Source of the DNA: a virus
Virus record (IMG/VR): IMGVR_UViG_3300042863_002274
Reading direction: 5' to 3' (one strand)
Length of the DNA stretch: 64,000 nucleotides
The position numbers were made by a program, and so were the translations under genes. Below are positions 16 through 42,448 of this stretch, piece by piece (positions within the stretch are counted from its first letter, which is position 1; each line of letters begins with the position of its first letter). The notes below the pieces were generated by a model. That model saw only the letters and a list, made by a program, of their open reading frames with translations, was not told the origin of the DNA and did not search any database.

Positions 16-3000
16 TTGCCTGTCGTGCCAAAGTTTGCCTTCATGGTCAAGCAGGCCCTAGACCCAATATTTGACTATCACGGCGTTGAGTCTTTTGTAG
101 ACGTGGATGGAATTGTAATGACGTCTGGCATCAGTTATGACTTAATTGATGCGGTAGATACGGCTGTTGATAACCTAAAAAAAAAGTCTATAAATCAAAA
201 TGACATCGAATGGAAAGCTGCTAGTTACCGACTTGGTCGTGCTATTGGTGGTCGTTTAACAAATAAACCAAATATTGGTGGAGGCCGTTCGGCCGGTCGA
301 TTCTTTACGTCAATTGGAGCAGAAGATTTTGACCCATTTAGTGCGCGTGATGCCAACCTAAACGGAATAGTCGGTGAAGGCTTATTCCTTCGTGGTGTTG
401 CTCTAGCCACTCCAGACCCAACACCGGATGGCCCTGGTTCAATACGCAACCCAAAACCATCCCGCGCTCAAGTACGCAAGCCTGAATCAGAGATTCTTGA
501 CCGAGCTGGAGACGGCAAAGTCAAGCCTGTCGGCTCAAAACTAAGTAGCGGAAAACTGTTTGACGTTCCACGCATAGACGACCCTGATGTAGATTCTGCG
601 ACAAAATACGGCTCCGCTGAGTCACAAAGAGACGAGCTTCAAGGCGTACTTGATGGTGCTTCAGACAAAGACCAAATAAAGAGACTAAAGCAAGCTATTG
701 CTGAACTCGATAAATACATGAAGAGTGTTGAAAAAACGGTCGAAGGGGACATGGAACGCGAAAAGCGTCCAACAAAACCCAAGGCACCACAGGTTCTCAA
801 CAGAGAAAACACTCAGCTTGCCAGAGGAATAAAGCCTCAGCGTATACCAATCGCTAGTCAATCGATGACAAGCGTAGAACGTTTCTCTTCTGGGAAACTT
901 CCCGACAAAGCTCAGCTTCCAGAAGGCTCCTCGCAGCTTAAAGAATTCTACGAAGCGATGGCAGAAGACGTAGTGAAGTTGCTCACGGAGTTAATGAACG
1001 ACCCAAATAAAGATAAAAACTGGAAACTTCCATGGCGTCGCCCTGAGCTTTATGCAAGAAACCCTACGCGCGGTCGCGTGTATCAAGGCATGAACCAGAT
1101 GACTCTTGGCTTGGTTGCAAAATCTCGCGGGTACGAACTTCCTCGATGGGCCGGAGAAGGTCAATGGAAAAAGCTTGGTGGAAAACTTAAGCCGGGTGGA
1201 CGAAAGATGGGCGTTTCTATTCTTGTTCCACGAGAAGGACGCACTTTCACAGACATAAACGGCAAGGAAGTCGTCGAGGGGCGCTACTACGAGGTACAAA
1301 CTGTTTATAACGTAGCCGAAGTAGCTGGCCTCCCAAAGAAATTTTATGAACCTATCGATGCGGACATAAATCAAGAAACAAGACTTGAAGATTTAGAAAA
1401 CGTTATTAAGGAAATTGGTCCTGATTTCGTAGAATCATTTGGTGAGGATGCTTTTTATCGCCCATCAACAGACAAGATTCACATGCCTGCTTTTGAACAG
1501 TTTGTTGATGCTACGGCTTTTTATGGGACAGCAATGCACGAAACCGTTCATTGGACCTCTCACCCAACACGCCTAAACAGAACTTTAGGTAAAGAATTTG
1601 GCGATGAACAATACGCATTTGAAGAACTAATCGCTGAGATAGGTTCAGCGTTCGCGTTGGGCGCAATGGGTATTGAGCCAACAATTAGAGACAATCACCT
1701 TGTTTATGTAGCAGGATGGTTGAAGAAACTGACAGCAGACCCACTTGCCTTGCATAGGGCAATACTTTCAGCCCAACAAGCAAACGACTTCTTGCTAGAC
1801 CGTTCCTCGACAATGCGAAGACTTGCTGGCATCCCGGACGATGAAAGAAAAGGCAAAGACAATGCGTGGCTCGAAGTGCCAATGCTTGCTGGATACGAAG
1901 ACTCTCCAAGAATCAAGCCGACAACAGGCGTAAGCGGCACAATGGAAGACATGCTGGACGTGGAGTTCCCGCAGGACTTCGCACCAGAGGCTAGAAGAAC
2001 GTCTACTGCGGAACGAGAGATGAGTTCTCTTTCACGAAACCTACCAACAAAGACCAAAGATGGAATCGTCATTACTCCGTCTGGAAGACTTTCTAGCGGT
2101 AGAGGCCCAATCAAGGGCAAAAACCCTAATGCGCCAGAAATAAAGCCCATAGATGAGACAGTAGCGCTCAGGCTTGCATTTGGTTTGTCAAACGAGCCAA
2201 CCGAAGAGCAGCGAGACATCATGGCGGTTGCCATGAATCTCATTAGAAACAAAGACCCGCGCATATTGTCTATTCTTGCAGGTGCTGGAACTGGTAAAAC
2301 CACAACGCTAAAGAGCATCGCATGGGGTCTGCAGAGAGAATTCGACCTATGGCCAGAAGGCGACCTTCGGAGACCAGAACAACTCAGATACCTTTCAGAT
2401 AGGTACGGCGTTGATTTCTCTGGCATGTCCGCGGAACAGGTTAAGGAATCTGTAGAAAAACTAGCTGAAGAAAAATCAATAAACAATCTTTACTATGCGG
2501 TATTTAACAAGAAAAATCAATTCGAAGCAGAATTGGAGTTTCCAAGAAATACCGGAGTATCAACAACCGACAAGATTTGGTACTGGTCACTAAAACTAGG
2601 ACAAGGCGACAAAAAATACGGAACAGGAATGCGCAGAAAAATGCAATTCGCATTGATTTCGCCTACTGACAGAAAAGTAAATAATCCCGGAGCCAAGAAT
2701 CCTAAATTCATCAGCGAAGCTCTAACTCCTGACGAACCAGAAAGACTATTGCCACAGCAGGTACGGGAGCTCTTTGATGGAACAACCGAGTCTTTTGATG
2801 GAATTGAACCAGGATACAGAAGTCTTGGTTGGACAAGATTAGATACTGGAAGTGATTGGAAAGAATTTTTAGATTTTGCAGACGAGAAGCGCTGGAAGGG
2901 TCAAGAAACTAGACCAACTTCTGTTCCCATCTTGGACGATAAGGGAAAACCAGTAAGAGACGCTAAGGGAAAAATTCAAACAACAATGGAAGATTCGTCT

Positions 3001-42400: not shown

Positions 42401-42448
42401 GAAGCAGAAGCAAACATGATAGAAAACGAACACTATGGCCCTTGGTAA
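33419..42448 (+). CDS. 3009 aa polyvalent effector polyprotein: three GNATs, DEDDh exonuclease, zincin, ART plus pentapeptide repeats, second ART-like module and papain/transglutaminase-like domain, with nine [RK]LSSG linkers
   Basis: HRRRGLA, YRRQGIA, AQGQGIG; DYETTG..NATFD..HNADAD; HEFGH..REAMAE; IYRG..SSWS..EDE; LYRAM..REY; GDCF..HAW..D. Confidence 0.85.
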   Translation: MSSDNEFPIPFEESRRGLAANQEEKAAVGRLGQYLASRGVNRPTIGEGRKKRRSGNIELPTGGKPGQRNPTGSRRDVDGDGWADEGTTKPVWVGTESQAGKPNTVARLSSGMVQLSPTERHDYGALVASKKVQAKDVKGKGGEYRIVITTSGTVAAFLDSDIEKERNNLLDRFNELGKNPFTNKEAPLALKDIDDRDVLRGLLDDQRKIKPSAGMQVYLSGKGIEVFGIETREKHRRRGLATEMFNFHREVFPDQDLQHSDALTDDGRAFADATPTVSVSAKLSSGKGRNTKLNVTRYGKDDEYAQVSSFEIDGKVFEISRGGDSPGRDMYNGYISAFDEDKNVAYIDYNMDTENKKAVVAMVFTDEEYRRQGIAEALLDSFVTENPDYEISPGGTTDEGGDWWRSVTGGDGPIKAEKATQTQEGLFSPRKGEQGDSGSRLSSGKKYQEIVDSQPSLSEDKKQSIANFLDDIVSEEFQKEDIYVLDTGPTPPRPPGMPEPKPRQILKDDEKRTLEKERVRNLLAEVFKGEMTLDKDVIITADDGTQLNIGKKVLVEIMPQSSYAPAIKVKKASEKDLAEQDELGLYEENIKEGDLVTELQLEFRIKPLPEYSDALLAIFNDEDGKRYISREDGTPALATGYRTFIQVSGDDKDVRIVSHDSFYINNRAQGQGIGSVFNARNEKLYNELDVRSIITWGNSGSGSTGAVHWPKNGFSWAGEKDKQDFIKLIDEAIVNTPEMFSEEDRKKISSLYRKNNDTGLFETEATAEEFVDFPKADEVFSNANAQFFYSRPLRELAGASSGSSGSARLSSGRAPRYPREPTLGAFLEGAQERFEGVDSWEEFKERYAETEMVFLDYETTGLDFDEFGKATTNGNPTQIGLVRMKNGKEIGRLNLFMNPEQPLGEWSLANLKDADGNPITNEWLATQMPMAEAHRQVAEFIGPDAIIGVQNATFDKRVLEDALERDGIDWRPSGYLDTRDISAMTLPVWSEESPEGPYITDRDGNKKPSSSLAAITEYLDVELGEGHHNADADAFATSQVMQKIIDRAIENGWSTDVLDKEKRDAKLKADNDKFNADIEKFESDKESFVSAQKEEESTRLSSGARAKRSIPPISEIRKEVGRFYRESEMSDADVVRTYLQIRNRDAEELYESRHTSGREISDEIGEHFSRFRDFIDNERISIDGMSDSEILEILKKGKYRSTIDSYDNAIDNIGPVPSKNSNRLSSGRQRELIPMNAPSKERKGTGATGYRTQDSSGNLISRYSSTWLSGLSSDEISKVVVPVNADEHFEMWADDIAGPNWRASKKQQKFIKNYYEELQKDSTNIPVDYSPESIAATQKLVKDLLDSSPSVMWVMQNFGAPLIVPFTREGMDAYENSPDMKERLELLAKQRGTEKIPFVSGLANRSLGSIGISPRALIDRESLLNDDKGVYPISLDPDRVPAPRDAHIDRSLEGTLVHEFGHWIHHRALWDTETNGASGKMRSYYGTGKLSDPRYVASLDVAEEYGDYETDDKRIEIYSQFIDLTGRSPEEMFRAHPDEPLLSTSYGNINKREAMAEAFVAIMHPNKEMPEKTLSKKLRKDIYTLIGVDEKNLPWSDSKAGSENRLSSGAKKDKRKTIFSRFRKEETEEATVEEKRKPPVVERPEGLVSFATEPSEELLKALPIPDEDTLKNELLKDVQSIALEFDKGAYGSIDSIGMGSRASIIAKKAITANLSRSVDFDVEDFIKVFSAGNDRFGFHSTETFKAVQKMYETVKNLPADAASTERRTAARGAFDTKSGRIISAKIHDDILGRARYYDEILDRLEKENFDELFGSSFDELMATDGSEKSLFTPYLMTKLGTDDIRREFLEEIEPRRGLLNRLIEAVELQESKAFGLARIGEINPNTGERDYEVISLLGRGVNMGVMDAMSSLDISDEDYGQKFADIMSEFKGWLTAEKLMKIRDSGLLKIDSSNIDSPEIKKALKEHLVANVRSRAGNFESKRESYTNKTGVVFFDLETTEGKRLVRESLISDLIHTWAISANNANPVALAVQHEIRKMFGLTEAVGWSTWPLKALLPEEREEMSAHEFDGAPELTDAQSAMIRPILQNIYDATQLYYKTKGVTHVPIYRGFSQNNIDLTPGVISPIETTMRPLSSWSTSSGVALGFSNSGGEVGGPLEPTLLKAFVPVEDIFSHPLSGFGCLSEDEVVVIGKPVKAFAILAYDSEEATRARNRLKNASMSAIAGEGRASKLTTSNIEELIKPGSDLSFIDGSDLDIEDADLRSADLTEANLSGASLVGSNLSGANLTNAKLNNANLSDSNLIGADLSRADLRGANLGGADLSGADLTGANLIDADLSNANLEGARLENVRLGSVDLSGTNLTDADLTGANGHNINLSGADLTNANFTAGFLMNANLTDTNLSGTELSSANLMGAKLNKANLTGANLSSADMADTDLTRANLSGANLSGADLRIANLTEVDLTGADLTGADLTQANLTGANLEAANLTGANLTDAIMPEGYVTADNQSSESVQKLSSGKKSHTPEWKTVEEIVDFEVLGASPDDSEEDRDDIVKESVGGDWMQWDPCREIRTAAYELAGIDEYSERDPNITQSGGFFGNSRFDTAISPEKRTEQARYLMASIVDSLTNKARYEKQPYLYRAMAFSSPEEGKQFFDTMKVGNQVDIPLLAFVEIGPSPSGDHFLTRFGNDALLVLEDFPGSYQTGGTFEPVFSSRYESDTLYNVNEFAEAILADIENGVSDEENIENDTEFANRLIKLVDDYQKSRDPAERRQLKTDIKDTLDEVGNETIKLEWEGESLPEDHEDYYLAMEDEETGMTPREYVSGGRLEVVSVNPDPTKTYKEIITLRQVGAFDPQEKGALVLKTDGENSTRLSSGKNPSKKAKPKSVQLHDDEFEKKFNQKVPDGEGDCFSEAIQQARKLADAYENVKIVHGYPLGTGGEAEGLRFPHAWTEFERDGLVWVRDYSNGNRVEFPQILYYGIGNIEEADVSRYDIKEAEANMIENEHYGPW
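40170..40906 (+). repeat. Pentapeptide repeat tract, A(D/N)LxG type
   Basis: About 240 aa of ADLSG/ANLTG repeats with 15-nt periodicity, e.g. GCAAACCT and GCAGACCT. Confidence 0.95.

Follow-up and report, generated by a model that had tools for sequence, protein, structure and literature searches.

The closest described counterparts of the locus analysed here are the polyvalent proteins of phages, giant multi-domain chains that carry ArdC-N, MPTase, GNAT and helicase domains and are encoded in a virion gene context (Iyer et al., 2017; PMC5512222). In that paper, autoprocessing of polyvalent proteins by MPTases and release of domains by embedded peptidases are proposed, an analogy to RNA-virus polyproteins is drawn, the N4 MPTase is linked to lethal factor and assemblin-like peptidases are placed at C-termini; text searches of it found no mention of a recurring cleavage site. 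Since 2017 it has been an open question if, and at which sites, such proteins of phages are cleaved. Here, we analysed a stretch of 64,000 nucleotides (termed the window) of the IMG/VR virus record IMGVR_UViG_3300042863_002274. It encodes three giant chains, termed polyproteins A, B and C, whose modules are separated by a short recurring peptide, originally described as [RK][LF]SSG and termed the separator. We find that the separator is under selection as a peptide and that its codons are sites of module exchange. A and C have the testable features of polyvalent proteins: each combines several biochemically unrelated domains, including ArdC-N and MPTase (in A), the domain architecture varies among relatives, and A, B and C are encoded among the virion genes of a terminase-portal phage.

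Processing of phage head cargo is known from other systems. The propeptides of the T4 internal proteins and Alt, and those of SPN3US head cargo, are removed at a short motif by the prohead proteases gp21 and gp245, respectively (PMC10052503). The leaders described below resemble them in that they appear to end in Glu-x-Lys|Ala-like sites. All cuts identified in SPN3US, besides self-cleavage, remove N-terminal propeptides (PMC10052503), whereas chains of the phage clade studied here have a second motif at internal positions, where it separates unrelated modules and is repeated up to 21 times in a chain. DarA and DdrB of P1 and gp47 of phi24B are likewise large MPTase-bearing proteins that are processed and/or packaged in the head; however, they have one or no known cut, and neither a repeated separator nor cassette shuffling has been described for them. 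Polyproteins of RNA viruses and of large eukaryotic DNA viruses are single chains that give rise to many proteins through one recurring site and the virus's own protease. Their gene order is fixed, whereas the tailed phage studied here has variable cassettes that would be cut. The nearest cultured relatives, the Gordonia phages GMA6, DalanDe and Chidiebere and the Streptomyces phage Gilgamesh, share 38-48% identity in the S78 protease and the capsid protein. In GMA6 and Gilgamesh, however, the protease is not fused to cargo, the head region lacks a motif array and nothing matches the zincin domain of B. A search for literature on the motif or on processed phage polyproteins, in which few subscription journals were covered, returned nothing closer than Iyer et al. 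(2017). To the question of cleavage the clade contributes an explicit, countable site and two named candidate enzymes.

An earlier note on the window had reported 16 copies of [RK][LF]SSG in three giant open reading frames (ORFs). All 16 were recovered in frame, four in A, three in B and nine in C (Table 1), and a six-frame search found one further match, in a non-coding frame. The note had not noticed the motif in other plausible genes, and the other called ORFs of the 92-kb source contig contain 0 copies in 20,668 amino acids (aa). When the three proteins were shuffled 2000 times, the pattern occurred 0.06 times on average and at most twice; LSSG is the commonest tetrapeptide in A, B and C taken together. 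It is the peptide that is conserved and not the DNA, as the note had stated: the 16 copies use 15 different 12-nt encodings, with serine specified by both TCN and AGY codons. There is nevertheless a mild codon excess in the separators, of CTT (10/15, p=0.01) and TCT (10/16, p=0.005).

In a non-redundant set of related proteins (A, 25; B, 34; C, 11), the conserved core is [LF][SA]SG, preceded by a variable residue. The basic residue of the original pattern is preferred but not required, its position being occupied in 25 related ORF1 proteins by R, S, K and A in 36, 19, 11 and 9 per cent; this variation led us to reject R/K as an essential P1 residue. Two near-variants listed in the note are not separators: both 13310 and 15695 fall within modules, and the consensus of these modules does not conserve them. 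Between 3 and 21 copies are found in 116 of 120 giant proteins fused to S78, compared to 15 of the 1,341 small proteins of the same loci that have the motif. Sister lineages have G[MLF]RS[RK] (more than 20 copies in one chain), GF[SA]S[STN] or SLRS[SG] instead, and the general form across lineages is x-[LFM]-[SAR]-S-[G/R/S/T]. The common rule is hydrophobic-x-Ser, in which the hydrophobic residue is one of L, F and M, not I or V, and the middle one is S, A or R, not K. Observed versus expected counts at the hydrophobic position are 1103/29 for Leu, 196/13 for Phe and 59/9 for Met, whereas Ile and Val are not enriched. A and B of the same genome carry the same variant more often than do chance pairs (0.50 vs 0.23 for position -1 in 29 genomes, a test inflated by relatedness since kin are not independent). 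Moreover, the motif before the helicase is kept in 76 of 77 related helicase-bearing proteins. Thus, the synonymous variety, the retention before the helicase and the enrichment of L, F and M without I and V show that the motif is under selection as a peptide.

The note had also placed the motif at boundaries between unrelated domains and had named module gain or loss there among related phages as a check. Both are observed. No copy is found inside any Pfam-matched domain of the phage, the separators occupying linkers of low hydrophobicity, and in a comparison of about 200 related polyproteins inserted, deleted, reordered and exchanged modules end at separators. With the motifs masked, 36% of 6,225 homology breakpoints are at most 30 aa from a motif, compared to 11% for shifted motifs; the unmasked control gave 34% vs 13%. 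Homology between polyproteins stops just before a motif and restarts just after it. Cutting the sequences at the motifs yields 403 segments in 92 clusters, whose order varies, and 60 further segments of less than 40 aa between twin motifs. Some clusters are common to B and C and others to A and C, showing that modules move between genes. On the DNA level, identity to the relatives L108, L090 and L094 switches on or off inside the motif codons at all seven junctions inspected (7/7). The motif codons are crossover points where the phages gain, lose and reorder modules. Not every event occurs at a motif: L118 has an insertion of 1.5 kb that is located about 150 nt ahead of one, and this partial duplication brought no new motif. 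Contigs from sequencing runs yielded pentapeptide-repeat noise only, and module deletion was not seen in them.

Some modules also exist as free genes. The terminal module of B is found in many relatives just after B as a separate gene whose start coincides with the boundary of the module, and two modules of C are likewise found outside polyproteins; the free genes of all three modules lack the motif. Modules thus behave as independent proteins, and the missing motif in the free genes is as expected of a separator, not of a tag. In most relatives, the variable cassette array of B has fixed flanks, the modules at 13016-13426 and, as terminal module, at 15188-16252. Each may be one half of a single domain, the two working in trans; a contiguous homologue of both was searched for and not found, the terminal module often being a free gene. 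The motif delimits about 90 module families exactly; half of them are singletons, and most have no Pfam name. As these freshwater phages are abundant, the families are a source of candidates for anti-defence or host-takeover functions.

Profile searches with hidden Markov models (HMMs) identified S78, ArdcN, MPTase-PolyVal and UvrD domains in A, and GNAT, RNase_T, pentapeptide and, weakly, zincin domains in C, together with weak matches for two further GNAT-like segments. The segments of C are, in order, GNAT-like, GNAT, GNAT-like, DEDDh exonuclease, unknown, zincin, unknown with pentapeptide repeats, unknown, and a Cys-His-Asp module. Among cargo domains, HMM support is limited to ArdC-N with MPTase, UvrD helicase, GNAT, DEDDh exonuclease, zincin and pentapeptide repeats. 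HMM searches returned no match for ART, ParB or DUF3626, and the DUF3626 control also matched nowhere. The likeness to ART, ParB and papain is of motifs recognized by eye; the invariant DGHHR of the 582-aa module of B is an example, being ParB-like by eye. The estimate of about 19 released effectors was too high: three of the 19 segments are leader or structural, which leaves at most 16 for cargo. Some segments are multi-domain. A 477-aa antisense ORF (39757-41190, minus strand) lies over the pentapeptide repeats of C and is most likely a shadow frame.

The gene for A had been given as 16-7305, an extent cut by the window: it starts 1,446 nt upstream and encodes 2,916 aa. Its residues 1-180 are an HK97-type prohead protease (Peptidase_S78, PF04586; E 4e-12, over the cut-off) whose catalytic His70 and Ser134 are intact, His and Ser being invariant among homologues. 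Residues 550-620 of A are homologous to the 107-aa leader of C. In L298, the S78 part has a gene of its own, and that for the cargo begins at this shared leader, and in some other relatives the leader carries a single cargo, which suggests that the leader common to A and C may direct proteins to the head. The N-terminus of B differs from it. B (within 9083-9900) and a 675-aa gene (within 17394-17850) have in common a short Arg-Cys-Pro-x-Gly...Phe-Thr-Asp...Cys motif near their N-termini (pairwise E 3e-4), which is invariant among B homologues and possibly marks a second targeting domain. Some relatives arrange their leaders and separators differently. In L075 and L083, the structural leader of A contains a separator, which sits in a variable loop around residue ~405; in L111, a C-type leader follows the A leader in one protein with 18 motifs; and the 3,535-aa A protein of L302 has only degenerate Ser-rich separators of the SSSRS type, though its B zincin is kept.

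The source contig is a linear IMG/VR record of 92,297 bp, of which the window is a part. It is ~58% complete and the record occurs in lake-water metagenomes; complete relatives measure 151-170 kb. Terminase and portal genes are followed by A, the gene for the PepSY protein, B, five genes of small or medium size and the capsid gene, with C 11 kb past the latter. A WhiB gene and the Gordonia phages among the nearest cultured relatives point to an actinobacterial host. The fusion to a protease, the position between the portal and capsid genes and the leader common to A and C make it more likely that the polyproteins are loaded into the head.

Which enzyme would read the separator? The capsid protein's N-terminal domain has three conserved hydrophobic-Lys|small sites and no LSSG. 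A pattern derived from the capsid alone, [IVFL]K[STAD], is over-represented in the remaining head proteins and in leaders (26 vs 15.5, p=0.005), but neither in cargo (24 vs 28) nor in metabolic enzymes. HK97 is cut after Lys103. The known HK97 cut and the enrichment in head proteins and leaders suggest that the hydrophobic-Lys|small sites are likely S78 sites. Lys is absent from the variable position of the separator (11/25 and 3/7), and the S78 core and the Val-Lys|Ser site that follows it are unchanged where the separator changes between lineages. The separator would thus be a code separate from the putative S78 sites.

The second candidate is a domain in the fixed part of B that has an invariant HExxH and downstream Glu on a zincin fold, and to which no named Pfam family could be assigned. 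An intact HExxH was seen in near (33 of 33) and wider homologues (72 of 73), almost all of which belong to giant proteins in the clade, and the domain is also present in sister lineages. The zincin profile missed the relatives G007 and G008, yet both carry a diverged HExxH domain. The best fold match of the zincin model (predicted local distance difference test 81) is the catalytic domain of anthrax lethal factor (Z 9.4, root-mean-square deviation 3.8, 180 aligned residues), and catalytic domains of Pro-Pro endopeptidases (PPEPs) are also among the best matches. Foldseek found nothing with the model, and Atlas matches were weak (a DdrB-labelled cluster at 0.78; TM 0.40). An extra separator just before the zincin (B residues about 250-280) occurs in L153, L154, L179, L183, L280, L343 and L354 and is absent here. 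In all loci examined, a protein with two PepSY domains is encoded directly before B; Pfam PepSY matches were obtained for 19 of 28 homologues (best E 8e-7), and fold matches agree. PepSY is the inhibitory propeptide domain of M4 zincins, and the protein is a candidate inhibitor or chaperone of the neighbouring zincin.

We consider it somewhat probable that the separators are cut by a phage enzyme, and we tentatively name the invariant zincin of B as that enzyme; because the separator avoids Lys and the putative S78 sites form a separate code, the zincin is slightly favoured over S78. Zincins commonly cut before a long hydrophobic residue. A substrate of MMP2 is cut as IPVS|LRSG, leaving LRSG (PMC8836073), which is one of the natural separator variants. 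The three genes would then be cassette arrays of head cargo whose precursors enter the prohead by their fixed N-terminal parts, namely the protease with the leader for A, the leader shared with A for C and the fixed region for B. Trimming of the leaders would fall to S78, at hydrophobic-Lys|small sites like those of the capsid protein, and the phage-encoded protease would cut the separators and free up to 16 cargo pieces for ejection. The B zincin would do so before Leu, Phe or Met, possibly restrained by the PepSY protein until S78 acts. The complete cascade, in which S78 cuts Lys sites in the leaders and in the PepSY guard and thereby frees the zincin, which cuts every x|[LFM]-x-S and turns three recombining arrays into customised injected enzymes, the same codons being cut and recombination site, is a conjecture we regard as doubtful. 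If true, virion cargo would evolve by compact means, through a processing signal that doubles as recombination junction, and a small sequence-specific protease could serve as a tool.

Several points weigh against the favoured reading. For a model that is largely helical, a Z of 9.4 is modest, and no substrate can be read from a fold; the likeness to the MMP substrate is an analogy across zincin families, and hydrophobic-x-Ser also fits a Leu|Ser or a Ser|Gly cut. The zincin could be a host effector or a packaging domain, PepSY domains are widespread without peptidases, and the N4 virion RNA polymerase and ArdC carry MPTases yet stay uncut. Leaders fused to one cargo without a separator exist (L274, L275), few or degenerate motifs accompany an intact zincin in L302 and P0188, and tracking of the motif by an S78 or zincin residue was not observed. 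The Lys specificity of S78 is read from a sequence pattern and from HK97, and for an uncultured phage we infer both cleavage and packaging. A complex prediction of zincin, S78, Zn and motif peptide (score 0.24, mark 0.32) was used neither for nor against. The C-terminal Cys-His-Asp module of C was rejected as the general cutter, since it is present in one of five near-complete genomes, there as a free gene; the ArdC-MPTase is unlikely to be the cutter, as several LSSG-rich A proteins lack it. Positions 141, 143 and 154 of S78 differ by clade but follow descent, and an independent LSSG pair lacks these residues.

That S78 itself cuts the separators, a variant of the phage-enzyme reading in which it recognizes hydrophobic-x|Ser with a relaxed P1, seems unlikely to us. 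It is fused to the head of A with its catalytic residues in place, the register hydrophobic-P1|Ser suits both codes, with Arg at P1 in sister lineages, the capsid N-domain holds a conserved L-[ST]-S-[RH]-E, and prohead proteases process many head proteins in T4-like and SPN3US phages (PMC10052503). However, the separators lack the Lys of the putative S78 sites and have only L, F or M where these have I, V, F or L, the S78 core is nearly invariant across lineages with differing separators, and the LSSG pair, which is nested among xRS lineages, does not share the residues found in the main LSSG clade. Less likely still is an uncut motif that serves, once per module, as binding site for a packaging, scaffolding or unfolding/ejection factor. 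Peptide conservation, the location in linkers and genome-wide concerted variants suit any trans-acting reader, and the MPTase-bearing N4 RNA polymerase and ArdC are delivered uncut; but free-standing modules and proteins of leader plus one cargo lack the motif, which is strictly between modules and never within them, and twin motifs a few residues apart are common. It is very improbable that a host protease cuts the separators after injection. Although broad hydrophobic-specific bacterial proteases have a similar L/F/M preference and activation would be delayed until entry, the motif shifts in step across genes by phage lineage, three candidate proteases are encoded by the phage itself, and chains of 250-330 kDa would presumably have to be ejected whole. 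We give as little credence to the view that the motif is just a flexible linker or a scar of recombination, which microhomology-driven shuffling of cassettes would have spread without a protein partner: crossovers do lie in the motif codons and CTT and TCT are over-used, but there are 15 different encodings in 16 copies, TCN/AGY switches among them, the motif is retained between flanks that have diverged, and a linker would need neither L, F and M nor the exclusion of I and V.

Table 1. Coordinates of the polyproteins, their separators and associated features in the window.
Feature	Position	Strand	Remarks
Polyprotein A, 2,916 aa	1..7305	+	First 482 codons, coding for S78 and the larger part of the structural leader, are 5' of the window; portal gene directly before
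Conserved leader of A	205..414	+	Glu-x-Lys|Ala-Ala-x-x-Arg-Leu-Gly, then DxDxDG-like motif; homologous to C leader
Separator KLSSG	538..552	+	In A
Separator RFSSG	880..894	+	In A; precedes ArdC-N + MPTase segment (883-2085)
Separator RLSSG	2086..2100	+	In A; precedes UvrD-type helicase segment (2089-5718)
Separator RLSSG	5719..5733	+	In A; precedes C-terminal module without assigned function
PepSY protein, 560 aa, conserved	7385..9067	+	Has an acidic tract; two domains of PepSY type (about 8309-8707)
Polyprotein B, 2,389 aa	9083..16252	+	Fixed N-terminal 1,311 aa, then variable cassette array
Invariant zincin of B	10100..11332	+	H602, E603, H606, E703, E707; HExxH at 10886-10900; modelled fold lethal-factor/PPEP-like
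Separator RLSSG	13013..13027	+	In B
Separator RLSSG	13427..13441	+	In B; precedes 582-aa module with invariant DGHHR motif
Separator RLSSG	15185..15199	+	In B; precedes terminal 350-aa module (free gene in many relatives)
HK97-fold major capsid protein	20936..22303	+	N-terminal domain with conserved hydrophobic-Lys|small sites, LSSG absent
Polyprotein C, 3,009 aa	33419..42448	+	107-aa leader (33419-33736) and nine segments
Separator RLSSG	33737..33751	+	In C
Separator KLSSG	34262..34276	+	In C
Separator RLSSG	34736..34750	+	In C
Separator RLSSG	35840..35854	+	In C; DNA swap junction vs L108
Separator RLSSG	36713..36727	+	In C; swap junction vs L108 and L090
Separator RLSSG	37085..37099	+	In C; swap junction vs L108 and L090
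Separator RLSSG	38231..38245	+	In C
Separator KLSSG	40958..40972	+	In C; swap junction vs L094
Separator RLSSG	42029..42043	+	In C; swap junction vs L094

Further genes of the window were noted. Several small basic or Cys-rich genes at 16249-24066 and 42435-43752 (DUF3721-, DUF6321- and DUF5872-like) contain hydrophobic-Lys|small sites and probably encode minor head proteins. Three HNH-like genes on the minus strand (24642-26349) adjoin a class II ribonucleotide reductase. Finally, four genes at 47732-51155 resemble those for dTDP-rhamnose synthesis (rmlA, C, B, D), as read from the sequence alone.

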